From positions 2,356,001 through 2,420,000 of the forward strand of contig OZ296659.1 in NCBI GenBank assembly GCA_965655095.1: 64,000 nucleotides of DNA, given 5' to 3'. The stretch is from Haplodiscus bocki. Taxonomy: Eukaryota. A program made the position numbers and the translations under genes. Numbering within the stretch: the first letter of the stretch is position 1; each line of letters begins with the position of its first letter. A model generated the notes under the pieces. The model had not been told where the DNA came from. It ran no database searches and saw only the letters and a program-made list of their open reading frames with translations. Positions 22,058 through 48,874 of the stretch are shown in pieces.

Positions 22058-22239
22058 CTTTTTAGGCGCAGGTATTTGTTGGGATTCGTCTGAGTGTTGA
22101 TTGCGAGAATCTTCGGCATCTTTGTTTTCGGCACCAGAAGGCGCCGTCTCTGTTAGTTCTCTCTGTCTGGCCTTGTCTTCTTCAGAGAGAACCGCAAAAA
22201 AGTAACTGCAATTATCGCATTTGACAAAACGAGTTGACG
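22058..22239 (-). CDS. CLPX: Host CLPX exon (second half of zinc finger to the PPPKK-like segment)
   Basis: Acceptor tttatttcag, then (S)STRFVKCDNCSYFFAVLSEED...QIPAPKK, then donor GTTAAC. Matches CLPX [20 protein letters not shown]...PPPKK. Phases (1 in, 0 out) fit both neighbouring exons. Not in the ORF track. Confidence 0.92.
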
Positions 22240-24276: not shown

Positions 24277-24698
24277 TACAGTGCTCACATTGATATTTCA
24301 CTCGGTTTTTTCGGGTTACACTATTTTGCCACCCAATATTGAAGAGAACCGCTGGCCATTTTTGACCGTTTAGACACGATGACTAGAGTCTCTCTGATGA
24401 CGTCACAAAATGCAAATTTTGTACAGGATAAAAAACTATGCATAAGCCACTTTCCAATACACATTCCTCTTTTCAGCTGCATAAACGTAAATGTAAAGTG
24501 TAATAAATGAATGAGAGTAAACAAAAAAGAACTTATCCAGCTTCACTCAATCACTCAGCTGGCAAGTCACGAATCGGTTTGAGAAAGATGCTCGAAGATG
24601 CAAACAAAAAAAAACGAAATAAAATCTAAAGGCCTATCGGCTTAATGACAATTATTTTTTACAATAATGCTCACCACTGCACTAATGTGAGTATTGGC

Positions 24699-24876
24699 AG
24701 TAGTATTGTAAGGGGGGGGGTTTAGTGCTATTTTGGCTCCTTTGCAGTTTTTGCACAAATAAGAAAGTTTTGCAGTATATTGACAAAGAAAACTTCTTTG
24801 ACAGCCCATTGACAAGTGAAACCACTAAAGCGAACCCAAAATAGATTTGACAGCTGGCTGACAGGTAAATATACAT
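24699..24876 (+). repeat. Left terminal inverted repeat of the Polinton
   Basis: AGTAGTATTGTAA-G9-TTTAGTGCTATTTTGGCTCCTTTGCA...; aligns to the reverse complement of 39415-39603 with about 20 mismatches in the inner ~135 bp. Confidence 0.93.
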
Positions 24877-25680
24877 TTGTTCCAATTTTGATAAATTAAT
24901 CCTGACCCATCACGAATTCCAACAAAAACTGACACCGGGTGCCAAATTCAATAGATATAATACATTGAACGGCCTAACTATATTTTCGTACGAAAGCTTC
25001 TTTAATTCAACTGAAACTCTACGCAATTAAATGCAATGGTCGAATAATACCTTTACCGAAAACCTTCGACGAATAGCTGAAAAACTCAAATTGGCTGTTA
25101 CTCAAAGGGGATCGAAAACCATTTAAAATTGAACAAACTCCGATTTTTACTGAGAGAGGGTTTTCCTTTTTTCGATGAATTTTTGAACAAGCAAACGCTT
25201 TTGTCAGATCGGCAGATTGAATAATCAATCTGTCTATGACATTTTGAACATTCGTTCGCGTGTTTTTTTTGGGCATCGAAGTCCCAGTTATCACGGTGAA
25301 TGAATAAAGCAGACGAGTGAATGTAGCGGACCGCGTAATGAACTCACTGCGTTTCTTCATTTTACATGTTCATCATGATGCCATTGCTGAAACACAATTG
25401 CTTAGTTTTACTTACTCGTTTTTTGGCTCACTGTTCCACTTGCTCGCTTCAATCTTTCGGCAATGACGTCAGAAAAACTTGGATGATTTCGAATAGCCGA
25501 GACACAGTTGACTATCTCCATCTTATATGGGATTTTTGAATGCTCTTGAAAATTTAATAGGTGAGGTATTTCGAATGTTCTGATTAATATAGTAAATCAA
25601 TTCATTAGGAGAATAGCTTACATTTTGTTTTCTTGATGAGGAAAACCCTCTCGTCAAAGTAAATCCTTCCATTGATAATC

Positions 25681-28600
25681 ATGTTATCCTGTGAAACTTG
25701 TGGTAAAATGTTCAAAACTCAAGGTTTCTTGAACAACCATCTCAGAATTAAGCACCAACTTAATATAATCAAAACTGCTGCTTCTTTCCATTGTGGGGAA
25801 TGTGGTGCTCAGTTCACTAAAAGCAAAAACCTTGTCAGACATTTGAGAAGTCAACATCAAACCGCGAACCCTCACAGATGTTACTTCTGTCCTCAATTCT
25901 TTGCAATGGAAAACTCTCTGAATGATCACGAGCAAAAGGACCATGGATTGAATGTGGAAAACGTCCCACGGAAAAGAGTCGCCAATCCTGCATCAATTGA
26001 AGCCACTACTGTGGCAATAAATAACAGATTCACAACTCATTGCTTAAAGCTACCAAAGGACGAACTTTCCATCGATCCATTCAATTATTTAGTTTCGCAG
26101 CAATCAAACATAATGGACTTCATTGATGCAGAACTTCAGAAAGTGCCCAATATGAAAGTTGGTTTTTCTATTTCTGTCGACCTTGTGAAACCTCTGAACA
26201 ATGACAAAATCACAGCTTTCTTCAATTCATGTCTGGTTAGAATTGCTCATAGCATCACAGATGAAGAGTATCTTGACCACGTGGACCAACTAATGTCTAA
26301 GCTCAATGTATTCGCTTCTTGTGGTTCTGGATGGGTGATTGAAAGTCTTAAATGTATCGAGGTCAAAACAGCGACATGCCAGACCCTCAACGGGTCCTCT
26401 TACATTGAGACACCTAACATTCTGAAGGGACTTTCGAAGAGTCTTTTGAACGTGAGAAACAAAAAGGACAATTTTTGTTTTGTGTATTGTGTAGCAGCCT
26501 CAATCTTTTCTTTCATCGGTCGAGCAATTTACCCAAAATCGCACAAAGAGAATGTCAAACGACTAAAATTCAACGCAAAGCGAATGCCAATGCCTTTATC
26601 CAGTATAGCACCATTCGAGAAAAGCAACAACGTCTCAATTAATGTGTATCAACTTGACAACCATAAACTGGTAGCGGTCTATTACAGTAAAAATAAAACT
26701 TCTAAACGACGTATCAATTTACTTCGTTTGGTCGACGGTTCCAAAAGTCATTACTGTCTGATCAAAAATTTTTCCAATTTGCTTCAGCGGCTCACTCGAT
26801 CAGAGAAGAAACGAAGGCACGGTCCTAAATCAAAATTCTGTTCAAATTGCTTCCAGCCCATTTTACGAAAAAATTACAGAAGTCACGCAAAGTTCTGTGA
26901 GTCAAATTCACCTCTTGAAATTCGCATGCCTCTTTCCTCGCCGATCATTGAGTTCGTAAATTGGCAGAAAACTCAAAGAGTTCCGTTTGTTGTTTACGCG
27001 GACCTTGAAGCCATCGATGTTCGTTCTGACAATTCAGTAAAAGCTGGCATGAACACAAAGGAAATTGAAAGACAGTACCCTTGCAGCTTCGGTGCCGTTC
27101 TCGTGGACGAAAGAAGTTGGTTTTAATTTTTCGTGTTTAGTTTTGCAGAATTTTGTTACAAGAAAAATATACTTTTTGGTTGACGAGACCATAATTTCAA
27201 ACCAATTATTATTTTCTGTTTAGGTAACGCTGTTATAAAGGAGAAGTTCTACAAAGGAGAGGACTGTATTATTCATCTTATGGATTTGCTTCGTTCTTGG
27301 TCTGCTTGGTGTTATGCTGAGAAACGTAGGTTCAAACAGTTGAAAATATCTACAGAAGACAGAATGATTTTGATGAACAAAGATCAAATTCTTTGTTGTT
27401 TGTGTGGAAGTAGTGTTGAGCGAGTAGAGCGAGTTATTCATCATTGCCACCTAACTGGAGAAGTTTTCGGAGTTGCTCATTCTAAATGCAATCTACGAGC
27501 CAAAACCACGCGGTTTTTACCTATTTTCTTTCACAATCTATCACGATATGATGCACACCATATAATCAAAAATTTGAAACTCAACAATGGTGAGAAGCTT
27601 TCAGCTATAGCAAAGAATGATGAAACCTACATTTCCTTTTCCTTGGATGTACCGATGGAACGATTCAAGAGCAAGTCGGGGCAGCATATCGTACTGTATC
27701 ATTCTTTACGTTTTTTAGACAGCTTCCAATTCATGTCCCAAAGCATTGACTCGTTAGCTAAAACTATTGACAAAGGAGACTTCAAGTTGTTGAAAGCAGG
27801 CTTCCCAGATATTGGAGAGGAATTATTCGAAAAAATAACCAGAAAAGGTGTCTTCCCGTACAATTTTCTCGATTCTTTTGAAAAATTCAATGAGCCTTTC
27901 CCACCTCATGGACCTCTGTGGTACAACAGTTTAACAAAATCAGTTGATATTACAAAAGAACAGCATACCTTTGCCTTGGGAGTTTACAACGATTTCAAGT
28001 GTAGAAACTTGGGCGACTATCATGATGTTTATTTACGAACCGACGTTTTAATTCTTGGTGACATTTTCCAAAAGTTCAGAGAGGTATGTATGCAAGTCTA
28101 CAACTTGGACCCAGCACACTTTTATTCGGCTCCCAATCTGAGCTGGGATGCAATGCTCATTACTACTGGAGTAAAACTAGAACTATTACAAGACATTGAC
28201 CAGCTTTTATTTTTCGAGAAGGGAATTCGGGGTGGAATAAATGGGCTGGGAGCCCTTCGCCACTTTGAAGCAAACAATAAGTACCTTGAAAACTTCAATC
28301 CAGATGAAGAGTCTACTTTTGGTGCTTTTTTTGACGTAACATCTCTATATGCTGGAACAATGCAAAAAGAAATGCCTGTTGGCGGTTATAAATGGTGCAC
28401 AGAAATCACTCTATCGGAAATTCTTTCAACATCTGCAGATTCTGCTTTTGGATATTTCGTTGAGGTGGACCTTGCTTATCCAGCCGAAGTTCATGACGTC
28501 CACAATGATCTGCCTCTCGCACCGGAAAAAATTAAAATTCCAACCGAGTGGAGATCTGATTACGCCAAATCATTCGGGTTGAATGTAGGTTCCTCAACTG

Positions 28601-30255
28601 AAAAACTTGTGGAAACTTTGCTCGACAAAACGCACTATATTTGCCACTACGAAAACCTAAAGTTCTATCTCAAGCATGGCCTAAAAGTTAAAAAACTTCA
28701 TAGAGTAGTAGAATTCCAGCAGTCGAAGTGGCTTGGAGCCTATATCGCGAAGAATACAACAATGCGAAAACAAGCATCTAATGACTTTGAAAAAAATTTT
28801 TACAAACTGATGTCAAACGCTTGCTTCGGCAAGACAATGGAAAACCTTCGGCGACGCGGTAATATGCGATTCGTTACCACAGAAGCACAAGCCGAAACCT
28901 TCGTACAACGAGCTACGTTCAAGAACTTCAAAATCATCAGCGATGCGCTTGTGTCAGTTTCTTTCAGCGCTTCGTCAGTAATTTGGAACAAACCTACGCC
29001 CGTGGGAGCAACTATTTTGGATCTTTCAAAGCTCTGTTTGTATAAGTTTCACTATGAAGAGATGCTGCCTCGTTATGGATCAGATCGGTTGAAGGTTGTA
29101 TATAAAGACACTGATTCTTTGCTTTATAGAATCCAAACTAACGACTTATATGCAGATATGTCAACATTTAAGCATCTTCTTGATCTTTCTGATTATCCCG
29201 AAGATCATATGCTTCACGACAAAACCAACAAGAAGGTTCCACTTACAATGACCGATGAACTGAATGGAAAAATTTTGAAGGAAGTGGTTTGCCTAAGATC
29301 AAAATTATATAGCATTGATTATTTGGGTGGAACAAAGCAAAGTGCCAAAGGTGTGCAAAAATCTGTCAAGAAGACTCTGCACCATAGTCTCTTTAAAAAC
29401 TGTCTTCTCTCGAAATCCACTGTACGAATAGAAATGACACAATTAAAATCAGTGGGGCATCAGATTGTGGTCAACTCTGTAAATAAAATAGCCCTCAGTT
29501 GTTTTGACGACAAGCGGTATATCTTGGATGATACTGTGTCCTCTCTAGCATATGGGCATTACTCTCTCACTGTCTCTCTACAAGAGTCTAGTAAGTCGGA
29601 AAAAGTCGAATGTAAAAGTTAAGCATTTTAAATTACTTTTTTTGATCGAAAATTTTTCTTTTGTAGCCAATAACGAATCTCATACTGAATCTGACACTAC
29701 GAGTGAGGCTGTTGACGAAATTTGCACTGATACTGATGATAATAATGCTGATCATGAAACGGACGAGGAAGATGTGGATGTTGACAGTACTGCTTCTACT
29801 GCAAGCAATTACAAAACAGCGTCAGCGAGTTGCTCCGCAAACGCTCTATTTGTAAACAATGATGGGCCCTTGGCCAAAGCATGGAATGCAACAAGCTCTT
29901 TCTGTGAGTTGGTAACACTCGATTCCATACCCAATTAATGTCATTCGTAGTGAATTGTACCGTCCAATACTCAAGGATTATTAAAACGTTTTCTCCTTTT
30001 TCAGCCAGTCCCGACCCAGGATATTTTCTAAATAGAAAAAACGACCTTGACTCCGATGACGAAGCTCATTGCATTGACTTCGACGACGATTTTACTGATG
30101 ATGAAGCAAGTCTAACATCCAACCGCTCACCAAGTTGCCCCTTCATTGAATATGAAGCGGAAGAGACCGAGTCCGCTTATCAAAATGATAATGATGATAG
30201 TGCCTTTGCCGTTTGTTCGTCATACAAACACAAACGTCCGAGAACTCAGTTGTAA
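25681..30255 (+). CDS. Protein-primed family B DNA polymerase (pPolB), spliced: exons 25681-27115, 27224-29590, 29667-29903, 30005-30255 (~1429 aa)
   Basis: In order: three C2H2 fingers; GSGW motif; OTU/papain-like DNFCF...SHYCLI; ExoI YADLEA; EndoVII-like CxxC...HCHLTG...AHSKCNL; ExoII FHNLSRYD; RKGVFPY; ExoIII YLRTDV; pol A DVTSLY, B KLMSNACFGK, C YKDTDS; acidic tail ending KHKRPR. Three GT-AG junctions restore the frame (4290 nt total). Confidence 0.93.
27116..27223 (+). other. Spliceosomal intron 1 of pPolB (108 nt, phase 1)
   Basis: GTTGGT...ttttctgtttag; T-rich; two in-frame stops (27124, 27181). Removal gives ...VDERS-NAVIKEKFYKGEDCIIHL, joining ExoI to the rest of the exonuclease domain. 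Confidence 0.88.
29591..29666 (+). other. Spliceosomal intron 2 of pPolB (76 nt, phase 1)
   Basis: Canonical GTAAGT donor and ttttcttttgtag acceptor; removal joins ...LQES to TNNESHTESD... in frame with ORF 29552..29938. Confidence 0.82.
29904..30004 (+). other. Spliceosomal intron 3 of pPolB (101 nt, phase 1)
   Basis: GTGAGT donor and ttttctcctttttcag acceptor; removal joins ...ATSSF to SSPDPGYFL... in frame with ORF 29938..30255. Confidence 0.82.
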
Positions 30256-30313
30256 CTATAAAAAAGCTTAGCCTAAAAATACACAGTATTAGCCCTGGAA
30301 AGTACCGAAACTT

Positions 30314-30319
30314 TTTATT
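30314..30319 (-). terminator. Putative polyadenylation signal (AATAAA) for the minus-strand virion gene block
   Basis: AATAAA ~53 nt after the protease stop, in the gap between the convergent pPolB and protease genes. Confidence 0.4.
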
Positions 30320-30371
30320 ATGTTGGTCTCAGCGAAAGCATTTCAAAGATTTGAATTCTAAATTTTTACCG

Positions 30372-31001
30372 CTAAATAATTTTATACAAAAGGTTTGTTT
30401 GACAGTGATCATTGCAAAATAAAACTAAATCTATATCTAGCAAACTTTTCAACGGTTGGAATACAGACAAAATAAATGATTCCAAACAGCTCAAGCTAAC
30501 TGATTGCTGTTCAAGTTTCCGTATCAAATAATGAGCAACGTAGAGGCAAAAGAGACCGCAAGTATTTGAATATGGAGACTGTAGGGGTATTTGTAGTTCT
30601 CGAACTTTTTGAATTTTCGATTGTTTCGAAACTTCTTGCAAATGATTAAAAAATGACGGGTAACTTTTGATAGGTTTGCCCAGAGGATCCCAAACACAAA
30701 ACATTAGATTTTGTTTCTCTCTGTGAACGGGCGGTTGTTGTTCTTCACATAGTAGAAGCAAAAGCAACCAATGCTTTCCCAGACCTCCAGCTCGTGATGT
30801 GTTTACAATGAAATAAGATTGGACAAGTAGCTTAGAAGCATCGCCATTGAATTTCTTTTGTTTTCGGATTGTCTTTTTGCGGCTTTGTGGTGGCGAACAG
30901 TGCAATAAACCAAAGTTGTCTGCTGACCACACCCCGGAAAATTTTGCTCTCGATGTAGCACAACAATTTTGGGCTATTTTAGCTAAAGTGAAGTTATCCA
31001 T
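30372..31001 (-). CDS. Adenain-like cysteine maturation protease (PRO)
   Basis: GVWSADNF, FIVNTS...GKHW (catalytic His), VWDPLG (Asp), LQSPYSNTCGLFC (Gln/Cys). ATG at 31001 overlaps the MCP stop. Confidence 0.92.
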   Translation of the reverse strand: MDNFTLAKIAQNCCATSRAKFSGVWSADNFGLLHCSPPQSRKKTIRKQKKFNGDASKLLVQSYFIVNTSRAGGLGKHWLLLLLLCEEQQPPVHREKQNLMFCVWDPLGKPIKSYPSFFNHLQEVSKQSKIQKVRELQIPLQSPYSNTCGLFCLYVAHYLIRKLEQQSVSLSCLESFILSVFQPLKSLLDIDLVLFCNDHCQTNLLYKII

Positions 31002-32364
31002 TGATGAGACTGTTTTTGGAAATGTTACGAGTAGCGTCAATAAAGACTTGACTAAATCGTTCACCGACAAGAAAAAGCTCTACCGGGTTAGTTAGAGCTT
31101 CCGAAAAATGCAACTTCAAAGTAATACCGGCGCCCGTAAGCTCTGGGAACAAAGTGAGAGATTTACCGGCTTCTCTGGACGAAGTTAGATCGAAGACTAG
31201 AAAGTAATGATTTTCTTCAAAGTCGGTAATTTCAATTCCATTGCCGCCTCTCGTGAAACCGAGAGCACAAATTGTGTTGTAGAACAGACGAGTGTTTTTG
31301 GTAGTGTCAATCGGTGTTCCAGCAATTGGAACGCCATTGCCGCGCTGAATTTCAATTTTGCTCAGCTGAAACTTTTGGTATTGGAAAGGCGTGTTTTCAA
31401 ATGTTGATCCACGAAAAAATTTGTTTCTGACCATACAAACGGTTAGTCTTCGCACAGGTTCGGTGCCAAAAATATTTTCTTTAACAAAACAGTTTTGTCC
31501 GGCCTGAATGATGAAGCTCTTGTTTAGGCTCTCAATATATGGGTACACTGCTGGACTCTTTGTCAAAGCCCTTTCAATGCTGACTTTGACAGAGTCGGAA
31601 AGGACAACCTTGTTAACAAACAGCGAGGCTTTTTCAATCACTACTGAATACGGTGTCTGGTCAACCCTTTTAATATCTGCAGCTGACCATGTGCCCACAC
31701 TTTCAAGTGCACAATTGTTTGGAGATCTGTAAAACCGCAAGTGAAGTGTCACACCAGGTAGCAGAAGGCGCTCACAATCCAAAAAGTCTATGTGTGGTGC
31801 TCCATAGAGCTCAAGATTGAACTGATCACCCCTTCTAAATTCTGCCAATGCTTTTTCTTTCGTTTCTTGACTCGATTTCGCATTTGCTCTGTAGCGATAC
31901 CCCTGACACGGAGCCCACGTAAGTTTGCTGCCAATATCTGTTGTCAGTTCAGTTTCGATGAAAGCCAAGTGGTGGTAGTTGTTGTTGCTACTTGAAATCA
32001 ATTTACCATTTAGAAACATCTCCACATGTGAGAATAAAGAATGTAAGGTGTTGTTGGCAAAAATGAGGTCTACGTCTGCAGGTTTCACTTTTTCACTTCC
32101 ATCAGGTTGGTAAATGCAAATCTCTACAGCTAGGCAAATCCGGTTCAAATCTATACAGTTTTTGTTTTCTGCAGTGACGAAAAAATCCAATTGAGGTCCG
32201 CGGCATCCTACGTGGGGAAACACCTCTTGATCGAAAGAGCCTTCATAATTAATCAGAACACTTGGCCGGTCAAAAAAGTCAAGAGCGCTATGCGTGACTG
32301 GATTGGCAATCTCAGATGATCGACTAAATAAAGTTGTTGCTGTTCCACTGATGCCTGTTGCCAT
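30994..32364 (-). CDS. Major capsid protein (double jelly-roll; PY/hexon-like), 456 aa
   Basis: Polinton MCP motifs NNTLHSLFSHVEMFLNG, NNNYHHLAFIE, RLLLPGVTLHLRF, PFQYQKF, FLVFDLT, LKLHFSEAL; size and position are typical. Confidence 0.9.
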   Translation of the reverse strand: MATGISGTATTLFSRSSEIANPVTHSALDFFDRPSVLINYEGSFDQEVFPHVGCRGPQLDFFVTAENKNCIDLNRICLAVEICIYQPDGSEKVKPADVDLIFANNTLHSLFSHVEMFLNGKLISSSNNNYHHLAFIETELTTDIGSKLTWAPCQGYRYRANAKSSQETKEKALAEFRRGDQFNLELYGAPHIDFLDCERLLLPGVTLHLRFYRSPNNCALESVGTWSAADIKRVDQTPYSVVIEKASLFVNKVVLSDSVKVSIERALTKSPAVYPYIESLNKSFIIQAGQNCFVKENIFGTEPVRRLTVCMVRNKFFRGSTFENTPFQYQKFQLSKIEIQRGNGVPIAGTPIDTTKNTRLFYNTICALGFTRGGNGIEITDFEENHYFLVFDLTSSREAGKSLTLFPELTGAGITLKLHFSEALTNPVELFLVGERFSQVFIDATRNISKNSLING

Positions 32365-32387
32365 CGTTTCCGTGCGCTACTCTTGCT

Positions 32388-32960
32388 TCAACTGAAATTG
32401 ACTTTGGACAAAATATCGGACCGACTTCTCTTGGCGGGACTCTTTTTCAAAATGACTTTCCTACAAACTGAAGGACCGGATTCTGAATTGCGACTTTTGA
32501 GTTTGTTATTGCTTTTATTGGCTGCTATCACTTTTGCACGCCCATGACCGGGCGCACGCCCGCGGCGTCGTTCCGCGCGCCTAGTCGCCGCAGCGCCGCC
32601 CGCCCCGCCACCGCCCGCCCCGCCACCGCCCGCCTCGTTGCCGCGCGCCACGGAATCCCATTCCTGGGTGGCATCCATGATAGTTTTTCTTGCTGATTTT
32701 TTCAATACGTCTCTCACCGCTTTGCGAGGTCGCTTTTTTCCGGATACAATGCTGGTGATTTCAGGAACGAAAGACGAAACTAGGTTTCTACCCAGCTCTT
32801 TGGCCACCGGAAAGATATACTTTTTCATCAAAGGCATCGCCACTCGTCCCATTCGCATAGCAAATGCACCCATGCCACCCGAGCCAAACTGCCGTGCCGG
32901 TCCGTGAAATGTAGACTGCTGATGTTGCTGTCGAATTTGAAAATCATAATGAGTATCCAT
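32388..32960 (-). CDS. Basic core/membrane-active virion protein (adenovirus pX/pVII-like Polinton core protein), ~190 aa
   Basis: QFGSGGMGAF protease-site-like motif, amphipathic helix AMPLMKKYIFPVAKELG, Arg/Lys-rich C-terminus; lies between mCP and MCP. First ATG is at 32960 (the track ORF starts at TTG 33140). Confidence 0.7.
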   Translation of the reverse strand: MDTHYDFQIRQQHQQSTFHGPARQFGSGGMGAFAMRMGRVAMPLMKKYIFPVAKELGRNLVSSFVPEITSIVSGKKRPRKAVRDVLKKSARKTIMDATQEWDSVARGNEAGGGGAGGGGAGGAAATRRAERRRGRAPGHGRAKVIAANKSNNKLKSRNSESGPSVCRKVILKKSPAKRSRSDILSKVNFS

Positions 32961-33028
32961 ATAGCTATGCAGCCTGCACTTTGTCCGACTGCTTCCCTGG
33001 GCCGTCTTTAGAAGAAATGATGATGGTG

Positions 33029-33030
<2 letters not shown>

Positions 33031-33105
<75 letters not shown>
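33031..33105. repeat. (GAT)25 microsatellite inside the Polinton
   Basis: 25 perfect GAT units with degenerate units on both sides (33017-33112). Confidence 0.97.
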
Positions 33106-33106
<1 letters not shown>

Positions 33107-33132
33107 GTGATGGGCTCAAATAATTGATCTCA

Positions 33133-34086
33133 TTAATCAATCCGCTTGCGAAAGTGTAAAGTAAGATTTGTGCGGCCGCGATTTAGAAACGGAATTAGGT
33201 GGCCAGTTTCATTGCGGAGTGAAACCGTGATAGATTCAATGCTAGACTTGACAATGCGCCGCCATTGAAGGTTGCCAAAAGTTCGATAATTCTGCTGGTG
33301 TTGGCTCCCACCAGTCTGTCGTTCATTCAAGGGAATTGCTCGTAGCAATGCACTCTGGGTGTCTCCCACAATTTCGTTTTGTACCAAATCGCAATAAAGA
33401 AAAATTGTGTTGCAACCACCGGTGAGATCCGTGGGAAATTTCCCGACCGTTTTGGATAACGGTTTGTTGCTCTGCTCTTCGATCGGTTGTGTGAATTTTT
33501 GAGAGCAGTCAATTAGTGTTTTCATGCCAAGGACATTTATTAAGTCTTCGGATATGGCTTCCAAAAACATACAGTCTTGTTTGGGACCCTCATAGTAAAC
33601 TTTCAAGGATTCTGATGGCTCATCTAATTTCCACGAAAGAGGAAACCTGCCATCGGCGTGCTCTTCGAAGATTTTTTTGCAAATTGAACGCATAATGTGG
33701 TCGATACTCACGTAGACACCTGGCTTGATGTTTGTAACTTTTTCAATAAACTTTTCTTTAATAGGTAGTGTTGGAGGGACGTACATTGTAATCATTCCAT
33801 AGGGCTTTCTTTTTCGCTTGTTTTTTCGAACTTCATGGCTACTGCCGCTTTCGTTCTTTTCAGTTTCTCTCATTGCTGTCACCACCGGAAGACGGTATTT
33901 AAACTGACCTGATGTTATATTCTGAATTGACGCAGGCCAAGCAATTTCGGACAAGGCTACTTCCCAGGAACCCGTTAGGGTAAGTTGTTGAGGTAGGAGT
34001 GTTGTAAACCGGGAAAGTGTGTTTTCGGGAAACGTGGCCATGGATGCGTTCGAAATCAAGTTTATAGTGAACTCTTCCATTGACAT
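33133..34086 (-). CDS. Minor capsid protein (single jelly-roll penton; PX), 317 aa
   Basis: FTINLISNASMATFPENTLSRF...LTGSWEVALSEI at the N-terminus; FLYCDLV...VGDTQSALLR...IPF...LTLHFRK at the C-terminus. Confidence 0.9.
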   Translation of the reverse strand: MSMEEFTINLISNASMATFPENTLSRFTTLLPQQLTLTGSWEVALSEIAWPASIQNITSGQFKYRLPVVTAMRETEKNESGSSHEVRKNKRKRKPYGMITMYVPPTLPIKEKFIEKVTNIKPGVYVSIDHIMRSICKKIFEEHADGRFPLSWKLDEPSESLKVYYEGPKQDCMFLEAISEDLINVLGMKTLIDCSQKFTQPIEEQSNKPLSKTVGKFPTDLTGGCNTIFLYCDLVQNEIVGDTQSALLRAIPLNERQTGGSQHQQNYRTFGNLQWRRIVKSSIESITVSLRNETGHLIPFLNRGRTNLTLHFRKRID

Positions 34087-34139
34087 TTTTCGTGGATTCT
34101 ACTAACGCAATGCGGTGGTAGTTAAAATGTGAGAATATG

Positions 34140-35135
34140 CTATTGTTCAAAGCGAGTCAACTCGGCTTCGTAAAATTTGCCTTCTATCAGCTGATTGTTG
34201 GCGTCTTTTATAGTGTATGTGGGAGGGTTCAATGTTTGCACTGTGGCTATGGTAAACACTTCCTCGGTAAATTGAATGCGGTAGCCTCGATGAAATGTCT
34301 CAATTTTTCGTTTTATTCTCACTTGCTGGCCAGTTTTGAATTTGGGTTGGCGGATTCGGTTGCAATTTTGAAGTGATATCAAGTAAGGAACATCATTTTT
34401 ATGCACATCTTTCGGTGCTAACTTGGTGATACGATTTACCCGACTATTGATAACATTTACGAATTGTTGCAAGTTTTCAATGTAAGTGTCCGTATTGTTT
34501 TCATGTAGAAATTTGAAAATAAGTGTTTTCAATGATCTAATGTTTCGTTCAGCAAAAACTGATTTGGTTTCACTATGTGTTGAGTAAACATTGATGTTAT
34601 TTTTTTGGCAGAATTTAGAGAACTCGCCAGCAAACTCTCGACCTTTATCGACCCAGATTTTTTCTGGCTTGGGCTGATTAATCGATTTTGTCTGACAAAA
34701 CTTTGGTTTCATCATTGCTTTTTGGCAGTCATTTCGCGAACAAAGTGCTTCTAGGATTTTCTGCAATGCATTTTTACATTCTACAGCTGTCTTTTTCTTC
34801 AAGGGCAACGCCCAAACGAAGCGACTGAGAGTGTCTACCGCTACTAAAATGAAATTGACGCCATGGTTATACCTAGATAACTTCTGCATATCAGCCAAAT
34901 CAACAGACCAAATTTCATTTAGTCGGAAACTCTGCACTTTCAACCTAGGAAAACGGTTTTTGGTTTGCTTGAACTTTGTGTAGGTCTCACTGCAGTTCAA
35001 GTAGTTGTCCACTTGCCTGTAACTGCATTTCGACGCCCTTTTGAGAGCATTTCGTCCAGCAAAGGCTGATGGGTTGTTGCAGGATGTGTAGAAACTGTGT
35101 ATTTTGCTGTGGGCTACAGATTCCTTTGTAAACAA
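34140..35135 (-). CDS. Retroviral-like (RVE) DDE integrase of the Polinton; no upstream in-frame ATG, no C-terminal chromodomain
   Basis: WSVDLADM (D1), VDTLSRF, IWVDKGREF (D2), FAERNIRSLK (E), RGYRIQFTEEVF, GKFYEAEL. The first Met lies after D1. Confidence 0.92.
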   Translation of the reverse strand: MFTKESVAHSKIHSFYTSCNNPSAFAGRNALKRASKCSYRQVDNYLNCSETYTKFKQTKNRFPRLKVQSFRLNEIWSVDLADMQKLSRYNHGVNFILVAVDTLSRFVWALPLKKKTAVECKNALQKILEALCSRNDCQKAMMKPKFCQTKSINQPKPEKIWVDKGREFAGEFSKFCQKNNINVYSTHSETKSVFAERNIRSLKTLIFKFLHENNTDTYIENLQQFVNVINSRVNRITKLAPKDVHKNDVPYLISLQNCNRIRQPKFKTGQQVRIKRKIETFHRGYRIQFTEEVFTIATVQTLNPPTYTIKDANNQLIEGKFYEAELTRFEQ

Positions 35136-35358
35136 GTCTTCTCGTCACTGCGCATTTTGAGCACAAAAATTCAGCTTCTCTTTTGTAGTCCCTAACGTGT
35201 TGGAGACCACTGCATTTGAAGTGGACCCAACCGCAAATGTTGCACCATACGGATGGCTTTTGGCGTGAACCTCTGCCCAAAACTTCAGCACAGTTGCCAC
35301 AGTAATATTTTGCTGTTCGTATAGATTTTGATTTCCTACCGTCCGTTCTCTGTCCCAT
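34987..35358 (-). CDS. PHD finger ORF overlapping the integrase 5' end (probable N-terminal module of the integrase)
   Basis: YYCGNC...VWCNICGWVHFKC...FLCSKC is a C4-H-C3 pattern; ATG at 35358; the integrase frame is +1 relative to it. Confidence 0.8.
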   Translation of the reverse strand: MGQRTDGRKSKSIRTAKYYCGNCAEVLGRGSRQKPSVWCNICGWVHFKCSGLQHVRDYKREAEFLCSKCAVTRRLVYKGICSPQQNTQFLHILQQPISLCWTKCSQKGVEMQLQASGQLLELQ

Positions 35359-35423
35359 AGTTTAGCGAGCAACTGTTTGGAAAGGAATTTGTTTCGGGAA
35401 ATGAATAAAAAAGAGTTGGTAGC

Positions 35424-36077
35424 TTAGTATAATCGCAGCCATTTGGCGGTCGAGCAGCTTCCAACTTCTTCGATTTCATTGCTATCATAACGCGCCACTT
35501 CCGTTGATACACGTTTTGCATTCGTGTTGGCGAGTAGAAAGGTGGGCAATTTCAGTCGCTTGACTAAATCTAGGGTGGTTTCGCTTAGGTTTTTTGTTGT
35601 TGTTTGCAGGTCATTTAGAAAGTCAAAAACTGTTAGACCAAGATCCCTGTCATGAAGAAGCAGTCGACTTGAGTCGCGATCGATCGATACGACATTACAT
35701 TGATCAATTTTTTGGAGAATTTGTCGTGCCCGCTCAACTTTTCCGCCCGAGAGTCCCGACGATAACAAATCCAGAACAATTTTGTCCGTTTTCGCAATCG
35801 TTTTGGTTCTGTCGGCTATTGTATCATCAAGCGTCGCTTCCTTCCGCTTTTGTGTCTGTGCCAATCTAGAATTCAAGTTTAATTGAGCACAAAGCTTTCC
35901 TTCGTCAAACTGCGATGTGTTACCGTTCTGTACAGCGCCACACGCGTTCAAATTGTCTTGAATGGTGACGTCTAGGTTTGTGCTTTTCGATTCAATTGGC
36001 GGTTGTTCGTGGACCGGAATTTTCGAGGATAATAAACACGTGTATTCATCCAACGTTATCAAAACGAACTCTTTCAT
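35424..36077 (-). CDS. Polinton protein of unknown function downstream of PW, 217 aa
   Basis: Intact ATG ORF packed 1 nt after the PW stop; MKEFVLITLDEY N-terminus and helical C-terminal block resemble the ORF that usually follows PW. Confidence 0.7.
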   Translation of the reverse strand: MKEFVLITLDEYTCLLSSKIPVHEQPPIESKSTNLDVTIQDNLNACGAVQNGNTSQFDEGKLCAQLNLNSRLAQTQKRKEATLDDTIADRTKTIAKTDKIVLDLLSSGLSGGKVERARQILQKIDQCNVVSIDRDSSRLLLHDRDLGLTVFDFLNDLQTTTKNLSETTLDLVKRLKLPTFLLANTNAKRVSTEVARYDSNEIEEVGSCSTAKWLRLY

Positions 36078-36078
36078 G

Positions 36079-36411
36079 CTACTGTTTTACAACGATTCGT
36101 TTCCTCAAATGAAGCAGAACCGAGGACTGAATCAGATTTAAGAGTTTGATACCCCTCTTGGAAGCTAGAAGCTGGCGTTTCTTATTAATCTTGCTCTTTT
36201 TCTTACAGAGAAAGTCAATGTCGGCCTCATGCCTCTTCAGCTTCTTTTGTGATACGTTCGCAGTCATCTTTATTTCACCATGTACAACGTTGAAAAGACA
36301 ATTGCAGAAAAATTTAACAATTTCAATGGAACAGTGTAGAATGAACATTTGCTTCAAAACAGGTTTCATTTTACTGAATATTTCAAGTGTATAAAAGTCG
36401 CGTTGACTCAT
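36079..36411 (-). CDS. Polinton PW-like small basic protein, 110 aa
   Basis: FFCNCLFNVVHGEI...KKLKRH...KKRQLL..KRGIKLL pattern of PW; adjacent to the ATPase. Confidence 0.78.
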   Translation of the reverse strand: MSQRDFYTLEIFSKMKPVLKQMFILHCSIEIVKFFCNCLFNVVHGEIKMTANVSQKKLKRHEADIDFLCKKKSKINKKRQLLASKRGIKLLNLIQSSVLLHLRKRIVVKQ

Positions 36412-37084
36412 CGTTAACGATTTCTTTCGTTAAATTTGTGGAAATATAAAATACAGTAGGCTGAGAGCCAGTACAGTTTGAGCAATACTTCAATTTGGGG
36501 TCTGTCTGTGGGTCCAAATCAATTAACAAGTGACCAAACTGTTTATGGGTCGCTCTTTTATACGCCTCCAAGAGAAGTTTTCTGTCACCCAGCTGTCTAC
36601 CTAACACCCCAATTTGCTCAACGTCACGAGGACTTTTGAAAAGAATCATTTGCGTTACATTGAGGTCAATCGTTTTTGAGTTTTTTGCTGGTTGGTAAAG
36701 ATTGTGTCTTAAAGTCATCAAATGTATATTACGGTGTCTCCCAGCAACAACCAAGTTCAGAAAAGTAGCATCTTCGCAGGCATCTTGATATAAATCATCG
36801 ATAACCACTAGCGTTCTCCACTTCGCAGCCTCACTTTTATCTACTGCGGCCCATTGAAGTCCTTGATGAAATTCGATTGATATCTTTTCGCGTGTACATC
36901 CCAATAAAAGTGATTCGTAATGAGGTTGGAAGTGTTTGTAAAGGTACAAAATATTCTCGAAGCTCGGCTTGAAAATGTTTTTTTGATTGAGAATTATTTG
37001 AGACACCAAATGAGTTTTACCACAACCACCCGGACCCACGATCGAAATGAAACAATGAGGGTTCGTATAAATTTTTTTGTTCAT
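36383..37084 (-). CDS. A32/FtsK-like genome packaging ATPase, ~233 aa
   Basis: Walker A GPGGCGKT, Walker B LVVIDDL, GRHRNIH (Arg finger), LFKSPRD, FGHLLIDL; ATG at 37084. Confidence 0.94.
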   Translation of the reverse strand: MNKKIYTNPHCFISIVGPGGCGKTHLVSQIILNQKNIFKPSFENILYLYKHFQPHYESLLLGCTREKISIEFHQGLQWAAVDKSEAAKWRTLVVIDDLYQDACEDATFLNLVVAGRHRNIHLMTLRHNLYQPAKNSKTIDLNVTQMILFKSPRDVEQIGVLGRQLGDRKLLLEAYKRATHKQFGHLLIDLDPQTDPKLKYCSNCTGSQPTVFYISTNLTKEIVNDESTRLLYT

Positions 37085-37377
37085 GCTTTTGGACCAGGGA
37101 TGATGTATCCAACGCAAGCCGATAGTAATGCTAGTACTCCAGAATGATAGTTTGTTTGCAAGCTTAGCGCCAAATAGCCGATACTAAACAAAACGACCAC
37201 AAAGATGATCAGATAGTGTAGTGCCAGAATTAAAAAAGCTCTGTTGCATGTTGTTTTTTTTTCGAAACAGCATAAATTCACTTCAAATGGAGATCTCTCT
37301 TTCCTTTGCTCGTCAAAAATAACGCTTTCGATATTGATAGAGTCAGGAAAGTCAATACTGGAGCGACTGTTATTCAT
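37081..37377 (-). CDS. Small two-transmembrane-helix protein, 98 aa
   Basis: Hydrophobic segments FLILALHYLIIFVVVLFSIGYLAL and GVLALLSACVGYIIPGP; ATGA overlaps with both neighbours. Confidence 0.78.
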   Translation of the reverse strand: MNNSRSSIDFPDSINIESVIFDEQRKERSPFEVNLCCFEKKTTCNRAFLILALHYLIIFVVVLFSIGYLALSLQTNYHSGVLALLSACVGYIIPGPKA

Positions 37378-37625
37378 TGATGATGCTCAATATTGAATTG
37401 ATGTCCGGCCAAGTTCAACAAAACATCCAAAATTTGGTAGAGTCGTTGCAATTCAATCAAATTCAGATGAACTCGATTCAAGATATTTCTGTTTTTTGAA
37501 CTGGCAAGAGTAGGTTGCTCTAGACAGACTAATGTTGTTTTGGGATTCAATCGGCCAGTTAAATTTGTTGTGCTTGAGATGGGGATGGAGATTGAAGTTT
37601 CGACGTAGGACTGGACGACTGACAT
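37374..37625 (-). CDS. Hypothetical protein, 83 aa
   Basis: ATG ORF within the tightly packed gene block; its stop overlaps the next ATG (ATGA). Confidence 0.6.
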   Translation of the reverse strand: MSVVQSYVETSISIPISSTTNLTGRLNPKTTLVCLEQPTLASSKNRNILNRVHLNLIELQRLYQILDVLLNLAGHQFNIEHHQ

Positions 37626-37649
37626 CTGTGGAGACTAAATTTGAAATGA

Positions 37650-38066
37650 TTAAAGACAGTATTTCTTGTAGTCTGAGCTTTTGTAAACTTTCATGTGAAA
37701 CCAGTAAGCGAGGCCAGTGATATGTCCTAAGAACATACTGTTTGCGAAAATGGGTTTCTCTGAGAGTGCATAAACGTAACCAGGTCCCACGTTATAATTA
37801 CTTTTCATGAATCCAAAAGCATCGTGAAAAATTGCATGGAGCCGAAATAGTTTAAAATACGTGAAATATCTATCCAGAAAGCTGTTCCCTGGTCCTATAA
37901 GACCTCCAAACTCAGCCATTTCATTGACGAAATGCAGGTTTACTTCTTTGTTTATACTGTAACATACTGCTAAAAAAGCGTTTTTGCGTCGAGAGTTTTT
38001 GGGGAAGAGAAAAGTTATCATATTTAACGTACACTCCAATTCATTGGCAGTTAAAATAGTGCGCAT
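37650..38066 (-). CDS. Parvovirus-type phospholipase A2-like protein (PLA2X-like)
   Basis: GGLIGPGNS (Ca-loop-like GPGN) followed by LHAIFHDAFGF (HD catalytic pair). Start uncertain (38135, 38105 or 38066). Confidence 0.6.
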   Translation of the reverse strand: MRTILTANELECTLNMITFLFPKNSRRKNAFLAVCYSINKEVNLHFVNEMAEFGGLIGPGNSFLDRYFTYFKLFRLHAIFHDAFGFMKSNYNVGPGYVYALSEKPIFANSMFLGHITGLAYWFHMKVYKSSDYKKYCL

Positions 38067-38131
38067 TTTGTAATACTCAAATGTGAAGTGAAAATTCAAC
38101 TGCATTGAATGAAGTTTAAATGGAAAGTGAT

Positions 38132-38980
38132 TCAAGGAAACTGTGTATTCTCATCAAAAAATGTGAACAAATTTGAATGATACTCAAAATCATCTCGATT
38201 GACGCGTGAAATAGTTATGTTTTGTTCTTCAACACATTCAAAACAATAGCATTGTGCATTGGAACATCCCAAATCTACTTTCAATGTGTTGCTGTGATGT
38301 GAAGCTTCTATTGTCCCAAAACCACGCATAAGAATGTCTATATAGTCCACAACAGAATCTTTGAAAACTGCATCGGATTTTTGTAGTTGCAGTAATTTAT
38401 TACACAAATGAGCAACTCTGTCTGTGTCGTCCATGCCTTTGAATGGTGAATAGCTTTCGCGTTGGAACTCCCAAATAACTTTGTACTGACAGCCCAAATC
38501 GAAAGTCACCTGAGAGGTCGATATCATGCCCAGCCTGTCACCGTATATTCGAAGACTGCTGGACGAACTTTTCATTTCCATCTTTAAACATAATTCAGGA
38601 TAGGTGACACTGTACAGCCTGACATTACAGTCTTTTAGTCCGTTTTTCTCGAGTGTCATCGCTAAAGCTTTTTTGAAATAGGACTCTGCTCCAACGAAAG
38701 TCTTGATATAAAAAAGTAAGTGGAAATGGGGAAGAGTTATTCCTGAACAGATATCTTCACAGCCATGCGCGTGGAGTCTTAGAGTGTATTCACAGTTCGT
38801 TGAAGCAACAATTGTTTTGATAACTTCACTGAGTGTTCTTGGTAAATCAAAGTCAATCGTTTCAGCATATGTTTTCGCGCTGTTTGAGGGTGATGGAATT
38901 GGATCTGCTGCGGAATCCTCCTCGCAGTAAAATATCAAGTAATAGAAGTTGCTGGGCATTTCACGAAAGATACTTGTCAT
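38132..38980 (-). CDS. Protein with a putative HUH-endonuclease fold plus a C-terminal Cys cluster, ~282 aa
   Basis: ATG in a good Kozak context (ccgccATG); motif LPHFHLLF; C-terminal CSNAQCYCFEC. The ORF is solid; the fold assignment is inference. Confidence 0.6.
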   Translation of the reverse strand: MTSIFREMPSNFYYLIFYCEEDSAADPIPSPSNSAKTYAETIDFDLPRTLSEVIKTIVASTNCEYTLRLHAHGCEDICSGITLPHFHLLFYIKTFVGAESYFKKALAMTLEKNGLKDCNVRLYSVTYPELCLKMEMKSSSSSLRIYGDRLGMISTSQVTFDLGCQYKVIWEFQRESYSPFKGMDDTDRVAHLCNKLLQLQKSDAVFKDSVVDYIDILMRGFGTIEASHHSNTLKVDLGCSNAQCYCFECVEEQNITISRVNRDDFEYHSNLFTFFDENTQFP

Positions 38981-39414
38981 GGCGGAGGCGTTTGGATAAA
39001 TGGCGACTACTTTTGTCACAATTCTCAGCAGATCTTAGCTCGGTTATGTAATGTTTTCTTTCCACTTCTGTGGAATTTTCCATGAAACCAAAAGAGTTTC
39101 TAGCACAGTCCCGGTCTCCGTCGATGTTGTTGGAAATCCGCGGCGTCAGCGGCGGCAGGAGTGCGTGTTAGGGTCTGTGCTAGAAACCCCTTTAAAACAG
39201 TCAATTTGGTGGTATACCGTGGTAAAAACTCTTTTTACCTCTGTATACCACATTACAAAATTCGTTACTTTCATCTCAATTATTCATTATTTTACTGGGT
39301 TCTGAGGCATGCTGAGTTAATGGTGAGTTTTGGAAATTTTCTGCTACATGTTGCTTTCATTCTTTAATAGAAGTTTTGTTATTATCTTAACATTACGTTG
39401 ACTAAGTTAGGTCC

Positions 39415-39603
39415 ATGTTTATTCAGCTGTCAGCCGGCTGTCAAATCTAATTTGGGCTCGCTTTTGTGGTTTCACCTGTCATTAAGCTGTCAGATAAGTT
39501 TTCTTAATCGATATACTGCAAAAATTTCTTAATTGTGCAAAAGTTGCAAAGGAGCCAAAATAGCACTAAACCCCCCCCCCCCCCCCCCCCTTACAATACT
39601 ACT
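39415..39603 (-). repeat. Right terminal inverted repeat of the Polinton
   Basis: Reverse complement of the left TIR; the C tract is 20 nt (39571-39590) versus G9 on the left. Confidence 0.93.
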
Positions 39604-39671
39604 ATTGGCCATTTTTGTTTTTTTTTCAAAAAAAAACGAAGCTTTCGTTTCAACAAAGTAATTTCACTAAC

Positions 39672-39967
39672 AAACGAAGGTCTCCACGACACTGCAGTTG
39701 CTTCCACAATGTGTACAAATATGCACACTTTTGCCCCCTCCTCCCCCTCCTTTTCCACCTCCACCGGTTCGTTTCCGGTTGGTAGCTTTGGTGACATCAC
39801 ACCCCGATTCTGATTGGCTAGAAGAGACGGAGACGTCTTTGGATTCTCCCCCTCCTGTGTCAGATGAAGAGTTGTTTGAAGTAGCAGGAGGCTCCAAATC
39901 GTTTTCAATTTCTGCAACAGGTACAGAACAAGCATATTTGAAGTTCATGTCAGCTCCATTCAAAACC
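39672..39967 (-). CDS. CLPX: Host mitochondrial ClpX (Clp protease ATP-binding subunit), exon encoding the Gly-rich linker and first half of the C4 zinc finger
   Basis: Translates ...GGKGGGGGGKSVHICTHCGSNCSVVETFV, matching metazoan CLPX [24 protein letters not shown]. Donor GTTAGT begins at 39671 (phase 1). The acceptor (tttcaaag, ending 39968) is less certain. Confidence 0.85.
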
Positions 39968-40318
39968 CTTTGAAAGTTCGAAGTGAAAAATGCCAAATCA
40001 AATCAACTATTTTCTGAAATTTTCTCACCCACCAGCCAAAAAATTCAGTGGTTTTTCTTTGAAATGGTAAAAGTTGCATTCATAACAAGATTGTCGATTG
40101 ATAGAAACGTTTCCCAAAATCATTTCCATTATTGTTTGAGCAATGCGCGATATTTGAGCAAAATTCACATAATTCGATCATTAAGGTGCAAAAAAATTCT
40201 GCCACGTTGCCATCTATTTCAAATGGAAGAAAACTAACACTGCAACCTTTCCTATCAATAGTCCATGGATCGTTAATGAAATTTCTGTGTGGGGAAGCAA
40301 AAAAACAGCCGGAAATAC

Positions 40319-47900: not shown

Positions 47901-48874
47901 TCTTTATTTTGGAAGCTTTATGCCATAAGGAAAATTGGTGGTGGTTTCAGGACAAACAACTTACGATTGAAAAAATTTCGTCCGAACCTTTGATCTTTAC
48001 TTTTGAACTTGGTGCATCATTTGGCAGAGAAAAACCATTTTGACATTTCAAAATGAACAAAAACTATATTCTTTGCAGAGCACTGAAATTGATGTACAGT
48101 TTTCCAAAAGTTTCAATATTAGGGGTGATCAATTTAGATACAAATAAATTTGAGAATTGGAAATGGAATTCTATATTTATCGAAAGATTATTCTTCGCTT
48201 GACGAAACATTCTAGAGGTTTTACACCATCTGAAAGTCTTGTAGAAAGTCATAAACTTTTCCTTCAAAGATCAGTTTTGTTTTAATGGAACTCCGGGGCT
48301 CTGGCTATTGACTTAACAGGACGGGCGAAAGTCTAGTAGGAATAAACTGTAGAAATTTTGTAGACTAATGGCGATTTGGAAGGTCGGGAAAAAAATTATC
48401 CAAGTCACTTGTCGTAAAAGGAGAAATGTCTATTTTGATGGTTTTAAGAAACAAAGCAAGCAGAGAACAGCTCAAAAACGCAAAACTCAAAAGTGAGGAG
48501 GAATGCGTTCTTGTTTTCCTAGTATCGTAGTTTTTCATGAGATGCAGTGTTTCAATGTTGAGCAGCATTTCTCTGAAAGAATTTGATAGAACATTTCTTA
48601 ACGAAGCGCACCAGTCAATCAAATTATGCGGGTGCAATATGTTCAAACATTGACTCAGATTGAGCAGAAAAGACCATTTTCATCAAAGTTAATTTTCATC
48701 CGATACTTGAAGTAGAAACCAAACCGTATCCAGGTTTGAGAAGCTGCCAAAGTTGTCATGAAGCTAAAGCGAGCGTTCGCAGAGCACGAATAACCTAGAA
48801 TGAAAAAGCTTAACTTCATTAGTTTGACGGTCTTCTAATGTGGACTAAAAATGTCATTCTACTGCAGTGAGCAT
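41907..48874. mobile_element. ~7-kb foldback/palindromic element with nested inverted repeats and possible hAT transposase remnants
   Basis: Outer IR 41907-42137 / 48659-48874; inner IR ~42476-44880 / ~45240-47631 (mirror ORFs 42702..42947- and 47159..47404+ are nearly identical). HPHNL and TPNI...FSALQRI at 48064-48646 resemble hAT motifs. Confidence 0.75.

Follow-up and report, generated by a model that had tools for sequence, protein, structure and literature searches.

An N-terminal PHD finger on Polinton integrases of Haplodiscus bocki

Introduction

A stretch of 64,000 nucleotides in the genome of Haplodiscus bocki (contig OZ296659.1, positions 2,356,001 to 2,420,000; called the window below) carries on its minus strand a PHD finger and a DDE integrase, which lie next to each other in different reading frames. 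The locus raises the questions of how the two parts come to be joined in one protein, where the finger came from, and what it would do on an integrase. In a preliminary description, made from the sequence alone, the locus was read as a candidate histone-mark-guided integrase.

Precedents have been described in other elements, namely Ginger1-9_HM (PMC2836005), CopiaMBD and the chromoviruses (PMC6673714), and the LINEs with their PHDs. The Ginger1-9_HM transposase resembles the window protein in that a PHD is carried by a Gypsy-integrase-like DDE enzyme, but this PHD is C-terminal, stands beside an Ulp1 domain in a cut-and-paste transposon, and is listed for one of 16 families (PMC2836005). Chromovirus chromodomains and CopiaMBD are likewise captured epigenome readers on an integrase, for which an insertion bias has been proposed; these elements, however, are LTR retrotransposons described with binding or distribution data (PMC6673714), whereas the Polinton PHD is known from sequence and from a weak flank bias.

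A full-text literature search, with supplements, Repbase and the founding papers of 2005-2007 outside its scope, returned no report of a Polinton integrase that carries a PHD or is preceded by a 2A motif, of ribosomal skipping in these DNA virus-like elements, or of an explanation of how Polintons choose their insertion sites. The main texts of PMC8502044, PMC11161782 and PMC10748475 do not use the term PHD, that of PMC5890265 has no passage on a PHD, and Polintons are unmentioned in PMC12846837 and PMC12338488. For the PHD domains of LINEs, no functional study existed as of 2014, as stated in PMC4120745.

Results

The Polinton and its host gene

The two frames belong to a Polinton of 14,905 bp with inverted termini (Table 1). 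Polintons/Mavericks (Polintoviricetes, adintoviruses) have been described as elements of about 15 kb with pPolB, rve integrase, protease, ATPase and capsid genes, terminal inverted repeats and a 6-bp target-site duplication (PMC8502044; PMC11161782; PMC10748475). Like these, the window element has a protein-primed PolB (DNA_pol_B_2, with the gene in two frames), an rve integrase, terminal inverted repeats and a 6-bp duplication, as well as a packaging ATPase and a cysteine protease, both just under the curated Pfam cut-offs.

The host gene is mitochondrial ClpX. The exon downstream of the insertion matched solved ClpX with E 2.2e-4, and the upstream exon gave a weak match (E 6.2), with residues contiguous with those of the downstream exon. 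In Pfam, the ClpX exon next to the element had no genuine match. One end of the Polinton lies 68 nt below the likely splice donor of ClpX, which places the insertion, as judged from this likely donor, in an intron inside the N-terminal zinc-binding region. The earlier placement of the element in the 5' part of a housekeeping gene is to be understood by coding position only.

Several other features of the window were recorded. The GT..AG-bounded interval within pPolB measures 108 nt both in the window and in the nearest sister, whereas a sister of 96% identity has 111 nt, and one copy of a PHD-less sister family reads the corresponding stretch as a single frame of 1185 aa; a spliceosomal intron within the polymerase gene of a Polinton is thus a candidate explanation of the interval. 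Within the element, at 33017-33106, lies a long (GAT)n tract, read as poly-Ser ahead of a 264-aa ORF, which varies in length between copies. Outside the element, the stretch 41938-48852 forms a palindrome of about 6.9 kb; its inverted arms are nested and 75-98% complementary, and its centre is at about 45.1 kb.

Table 1. Coordinates of the Polinton features and the neighbouring ClpX exons in the window
Feature	Position	Strand	Basis or remark
Left target-site duplication ATTGGC	24693..24698	+	
Whole Polinton	24699..39603		Inverted termini
Left terminal inverted repeat, begins AGTAGT	24699..24876	+	
pPolB open frame 1, N-terminal C2H2 zinc fingers	25663..27126	+	
GT..AG-bounded interval within pPolB, candidate intron	27116..27223	+	In two sister copies too; splicing inferred
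pPolB open frame 2, DNA_pol_B_2 and Endonuclease_7	27184..29622	+	Pfam E 7.6e-24
Ulp1/adenain-type cysteine protease	30372..31079	-	Peptidase_C48 E 0.0024, C5 E 0.055, below cut-off
Probable major capsid protein	30994..32376	-	Weak Capsid_N E 0.053; size and position
Basic conserved ORF, no family match	32388..33182	-	
321-aa conserved ORF after integrase, probably minor capsid protein	33133..34098	-	Inferred from position; no Pfam match
Integrase frame: helical N-domain, rve DDE core, SH3-like C-domain	34140..35144	-	
Linker zone with frame-shifting short deletion, private to window copy	35120..35150	-	
C4HC3 PHD finger, preceded by start codon and basic N-terminal stretch	35152..35358	-	Cys20-Cys69 = 35301-35152; N-terminal integrase domain in sister copies
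220-aa conserved ORF, no family match	35424..36086	-	
116-aa basic conserved ORF, no family match	36079..36429	-	
A32-like packaging ATPase	36383..37183	-	Pox_A32 E 1e-4, just under curated cut-off
166-aa conserved ORF, no family match	37650..38150	-	
300-aa conserved ORF, no family match	38132..39034	-	
Right terminal inverted repeat	39415..39603	-	
Right target-site duplication ATTGGC	39604..39609	+	
Host mitochondrial ClpX exon upstream of insertion	39672..40002	-	3' end at likely GT donor 39671; 5' end approximate
Following host ClpX exon, downstream of insertion	22058..22239	-	

The frame break in the window copy

The frames of the window copy were found as they had first been described. 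The minus-strand ATG at 35358 opens a basic stretch followed by the C4HC3 finger, whose zinc ligands are complete, in a frame of 123 aa that extends to 34987. In the integrase frame a TGA occupies 35147-35145; the 334-aa frame behind it has no Met ahead of the first catalytic Asp and stops 5 residues past FYEAEL, the end of the SH3-like domain, with no chromodomain following. The 25-nt GT..AG interval at 35148-35124 is present, and the arithmetic by which its removal would restore the frame is correct. Pfam models matched the window with E 8e-8 for rve and, for the PHD, with E 1.2e-3 across the full model but below the curated cut-off. The frame break of this copy was thus confirmed as an observation. 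As read from its sequence, the copy would yield no more than a shortened PHD peptide and, at the most, an integrase without the first catalytic Asp.

The junction in sister copies

To join the two frames, the preliminary description had offered (a) +1 ribosomal frameshifting, (b) removal of the 25-nt interval as a micro-intron, or (c) a 1-nt indel in this copy or the assembly. When the genome was searched at the DNA level, 40 matches were scored, from which 30 loci were taken, the window itself being one. At the junction near position 35,130 all 29 sisters have extra bases; in 25 of them the net difference sets PHD and integrase in one frame, and the remaining four carry additional indels of their own. 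In L002, whose gene is 99.9% identical, and also in L004 and L028, the PHD-integrase is fully open with 407-409 aa, and these continuous ORFs bear out the proposed fusion by the sister comparison that had been suggested as a check. The nearest sister element is 99.4-99.8% identical along its length and has a continuous frame; the window copy is separated from it by 34 substitutions and 8 other indels besides the junction deletion. The junction difference comprises several bases in non-homopolymer sequence and is not a multiple of three. A protein search of the genome agreed with this: among the 108 matches listed, 17 were stop-free from the PHD to the C-terminus (counted by eye), and among 30 loci taken from it the two parts are in frame in 23, the window copy being one of the seven without a common frame.

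The frame break is therefore a deletion private to the window copy as assembled. Option (c) stands as regards an indel specific to this copy, and fails as regards the size of 1 nt. That the break is an assembly error over a truly continuous locus is quite improbable: at the junction, contigs of runs X3 and X4 carry the sister form as loose ends, and among those listed none bridged the deleted form, but the deletion removes several bases outside any homopolymer and the copy has its own history of substitutions and indels. Programmed +1 frameshifting or the 25-nt micro-intron has next to no probability as the connection between finger and integrase, and both are ruled out as family mechanisms because the sisters are longer at the junction and their frames are continuous; the in-frame GT..AG interval is present in the window copy and the family appears tolerant of an intron-like interval in pPolB, but a recoding signal would be kept among copies, and the near-identical sister lacks the break.

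Spread, selection and structure of the fusion

The arrangement is not due to chance, because the PHD stands directly ahead of the integrase at all 30 family loci from the protein search. In divergent copies (50-80% protein identity), the PHD and the gene order were kept in 20 of 20. Of 523 PHD candidates in the genome, 150 were scored. Among the 120 best database homologs, 40 have the full C4HC3 pattern, and many of the others are truncated gene calls. In a scan of viral_contigs, no relative turned up. PHD and integrase are truly fused, and this throughout the family.

Purifying selection acts on the PHD as it does on the catalytic core. In the least saturated pair of copies, pN/pS was 0.13/0.57 for the PHD and 0.09/0.60 for the core, and over 15 pairs pN was similar in the two parts.

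In a structural model of the full-length protein, the PHD (pLDDT about 90) is followed by the DDE core and an all-beta SH3-like end. For the integrase, the best match was that of a MELD virus (E 1.9e-15), and a wide structural search with the full model, which covered the catalytic core only, aligned this core with foamy virus integrase (Z 18.0, rmsd 1.9, 140 residues aligned). Modelled on its own, the PHD was poor (pLDDT 53), and the top Foldseek rows were PHDs, not significant at E values of 1 or higher; its feature matches in the ESM Atlas were PHD clusters (0.76-0.78).

Absence of a chromodomain

The preliminary description had proposed that the integrase swapped chromatin readers, a PHD for the C-terminal chromodomain. 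The window protein is indeed unlike the chromodomain-bearing (c-type) Polinton integrases in having no C-terminal chromodomain, and its clade is unlike adintovirus integrases, which have been described with a predicted chromodomain (PMC8502044), in lacking this domain and having an N-terminal PHD. However, by patterns and Pfam no chromodomain was found among the 120 best homologs of the PHD-integrase, nor among the 120 best homologs listed around a PHD-less relative, and it is also absent from the PHD-less Polinton families of the same genome. A direct swap was therefore rejected, since the PHD-less neighbours have no chromodomain either. Because PHD-less relatives lack the chromodomain and adintovirus integrases have it, its loss likely preceded the gain of the PHD, as far as can be said from trees without a chromodomain-bearing outgroup.

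The PHD-less, chromodomain-less Polintons of this genome (L213-L272) form several young families with copies up to 99.8% alike. In some of these copies (L226, L248, L255 and L257), the terminal sequence of another Polinton was found just inside the element's own end.

Origin of the PHD

Immediately before the PHD, 14 of the 120 homologs have a Leu-rich leader and an NPGP-type motif, and 10 of these 14 show the exact StopGo core (D/G/C/N)(V/I)ExNPGP (PMC12846837). In StopGo/2A elements this core follows a hydrophobic tract. The same leader-2A-PHD layout was found inside Polintons at ten loci of the genome (L111-L120), with the exact core in eight. These belong to a Polinton subfamily (L111-L120, L132-L137) in which a Leu-rich leader ending in GVEKNPGP precedes the PHD-integrase. 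In the window's branch, of which the divergent copies and the window gene were inspected, the 2A motif is absent.

Two midpoint-rooted trees were built, one of the integrase part from the 61 of 120 rows that have both ends, and one of 30 rows from which the PHD columns were removed. The main PHD type forms one clade in both (support 98/90 and 99/93, respectively), the 2A-bearing rows splitting off early in two groups and the branch of the window, which has no 2A, being nested under this rooting. In these sequence trees the fusion is the mark of a single clade among the Polinton integrases that lack a chromodomain.

When 1.84 billion proteins were searched with a profile, 113 hits were obtained. 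A 2A-like motif precedes the PHD in 17 of 73 lower-ranked hits (P0253-P0325), which rank below the integrase fragments. Among the 24 hits that were scanned, an APE endonuclease was detected in P0259, P0265 and P0279 and weakly in P0261, and a reverse transcriptase in P0316. The window PHD is 52% identical to that of P0265, a PHD-endonuclease ORF, over 52 aa, and P0257 aligned with P0055 at 49% over 72 aa through leader, 2A motif and finger. Judged by the 24 scanned hits and the pairwise alignments rather than by all 113 hits, the nearest non-integrase relatives of the window PHD are LINE 2A-PHD-endonuclease modules.

In CR1 and Crack LINEs the PHD has been described between 2A and APE, with some of the LINE 2A-like sequences being inactive (PMC3708506), and LINE PHDs have been called widely shuffled (PMC4120745). 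The Polinton cassette is like the 2A-PHD-APE modules of CR1, Crack and L2 LINEs in its Leu-rich leader, its 2A-type octapeptide, its PHD that opens a catalytic ORF and a PHD identity of about 50% (PMC3708506; PMC4120745). It is unlike them in that it precedes the DDE integrase of a DNA virus-like element, and in that leader and 2A were lost in the window's branch. The genome contains both the 2A-PHD-integrase Polintons and a family of PHD-RT retrotransposons; the exact LINE donor family was not found intact in it. The PHD-RT retrotransposons (L123, L124, L126-L131) are a young non-LTR family whose N-terminal PHD, placed ahead of the reverse transcriptase, shares the short loop of the Polinton finger.

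The simplest reading is that the PHD was captured from a LINE 2A-PHD module, which is likely because in the early branches, some of them in this genome, a StopGo/2A-type motif still directly precedes the PHD. The direction would be from LINE to Polinton, since by distribution and nesting the PHD is wide in LINEs and narrow in Polintons.

Two further Polinton-type integrases, P0089 and P0094, have a different, more canonical-looking N-terminal PHD. The 61-row tree suggests that this type and the main type may represent two independent captures. In the 30-row tree, P0089/P0094 and the main type group together with one PHD-less row, and an AU test does not reject a single clade for the two types (p 0.27).

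Residues for H3K4me3 reading

It had been claimed that the finger has the N-terminal Tyr and the Trp two residues before the His that are used by H3K4me3-reading PHDs. In a survey of 33 complete PHDs, the Trp is invariant (33/33), and the N-terminal aromatic (Tyr or Trp at the position two residues ahead of the first Cys) is present in 20 only; Leu stands there in 11, which are early branches. At the site where the PHF23 alignment has Met, no PHD of the 33 has Met, and none has an acidic residue after the third Cys (the Arg2 site). All 33 have a Trp or Tyr just before the third Cys, the loop ahead of the invariant Trp is one residue shorter than in PHF23 and KDM7, and the mean net charge is +5.

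The cage of H3K4me3 readers has been described as two to four aromatics with an Arg2 pocket that is often acidic, RAG2 being an exception with a Tyr (PMC3241642), and Set3 binds with a Thr at the Met site (PMC12365614). The Polinton PHD is like the canonical H3K4me3 PHDs (PHF23, KDM7, ING, BPTF and TAF3) in its C4HC3 pattern, its Trp two before the His and its often aromatic N-terminal site (PMC3241642; PMC12365614). It departs from them in having no Met at the second cage site, no acid at the Arg2 site and a Trp or Tyr before the third Cys, in its shorter loop and in its positive charge. The best matches among solved structures were PHDs of H3K4me3-reader type, and were weak. From its residues, H3K4me3 reading by this PHD is neither indicated nor excluded.

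Insertion sites

Targeting to active chromatin had been proposed, to be checked by mapping the insertions of the family. Flanks of 1.4 kb were scored against 60 10-kb samples taken at even spacing, a library that detects high-copy repeats only. The second ends of six elements, three loci of the 2A family and three PHD-less loci in which no terminus was found were dropped; for five PHD-bearing flanks the assignment was by terminal repeat alone, and the flank of the window element itself was counted in. The mean repeat cover was 0.13 for PHD-bearing (n=47), 0.24 for PHD-less (n=47) and 0.40 for random flanks (n=60), with 4, 11 and 20 sites, respectively, lying within a repeat. The repeat content of PHD-bearing flanks is lower than random (p 1.6e-4), whereas PHD-bearing and PHD-less flanks do not differ significantly (p 0.10 and 0.09), in a comparison of copies that differ in age and on which selection acts after insertion. 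A bias is thus seen relative to random DNA, but no significant one relative to PHD-less Polintons.

Among the PHD-less families, the one nearest in gene order is as poor in repeats as the PHD-bearing set, with 7 of 8 flanks under 5% repeat. Against the other PHD-less group, in which 18 of 39 flanks are under 5% repeat, the PHD-bearing flanks (34 of 47) differ with p 0.016 in a post hoc comparison; post hoc as well, 1 of 47 PHD-bearing and 9 of 47 PHD-less flanks are AT-rich (p 0.015). CpG and GC of the flanks are near random and uninformative. The repeat-poor flanks are a hint and not PHD-specific evidence. The 6-bp duplications show a palindromic preference, roughly N-A-Y-R-T-N, which is common to PHD-bearing and PHD-less families (L061-L137, L214-L270).

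About 15% of the random 10-kb samples belong to a very AT-rich compartment of dispersed repeats (GC 0.25-0.29; L147, L148, L153, L154, L172, L176, L179, L187 and L189), which PHD-bearing copies rarely adjoin. Histone genes were noticed in a tandem cluster, the unit being about 4.6 kb long, at G000:C4 15.6-16.3 Mb and on C37.

Discussion

The Polinton in the window is best read, with a probability of about 0.7, as a defective member of a family in which the integrase has an N-terminal PHD that was likely captured from a LINE and likely serves as a chromatin tether. The recoding account of the locus is to be abandoned.

As regards the steps, an ancestral Polinton would quite probably have acquired a leader-2A-PHD cassette before its integrase by recombination with a LINE. 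In the early branches, the StopGo-type motif would free the PHD-integrase from the leader by putative skipping; in the window's branch, leader and motif would have been lost, with the protein starting at the basic stretch instead. This basic N-terminus presumably acts as an import signal. More tentatively, and at somewhat less than even odds, the PHD may bind nucleosomes or DNA in a non-canonical manner and so keep the integrase in place, and would cause at most a modest insertion bias away from repeat-dense DNA. The 6-bp target preference would be set by the integrase core, as PHD-bearing and PHD-less families share the target base pattern.

The PHD could also be a structural zinc finger, unrelated to target choice, that acts on element DNA, in multimerisation or in packaging, and that replaces a missing zinc-binding N-domain. 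Its basic character would suit this role, and Polinton integrases have no N-terminal zinc finger of the kind described for Gypsy and Ginger integrases (PMC2836005); the shared target pattern and the equally repeat-poor flanks of the nearest PHD-less family point in the same direction. This explanation is nevertheless less likely than not: PHD-less relatives have transposed recently (copies >99% alike), which means that the PHD is not structurally required, and the exposed invariant Trp with a second aromatic suggests a peptide-binding surface.

RAG2-PHD works for RAG1 as a guiding H3K4me2/3 reader, and the Polinton PHD could in the same way be a true reader that guides integration to active genes or promoters. 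The invariant Trp, the N-terminal aromatic of the later branches, the reader-type structural matches, the scarcity of repeats in the flanks relative to random sites, the post hoc scarcity of AT-rich flanks and the position of the window copy 68 nt from a ClpX exon would all agree with such a role, and neither the missing Met nor the missing acid is decisive in view of Set3 (PMC12365614) and RAG2 (PMC3241642). Even so, a true reader appears rather unlikely. The Met and the acidic residue are absent throughout, a bulky residue stands before every third Cys, the finger is positively charged with a shortened loop, PHD-bearing flanks do not differ significantly from PHD-less ones, CpG and GC are near random, and a single intronic insertion is weak evidence.

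In its boldest and similarly doubtful form, the scheme would have the LINE-derived 2A-PHD cassette become a histone-tail reader, with ribosomal skipping in the early branches, an aromatic cage residue gained in the later ones, and a PHD that steers insertions to open, repeat-poor, gene-containing chromatin.

On the preferred reading, that of a LINE-captured PHD as a likely tether, a domain cassette would have moved from a retrotransposon to the integrase of a DNA virus-like element, with the StopGo-type motif still attached in early branches. Young Polinton families with and without the PHD coexist in one genome and provide a natural control, by which the role of a transposon PHD is directly testable.
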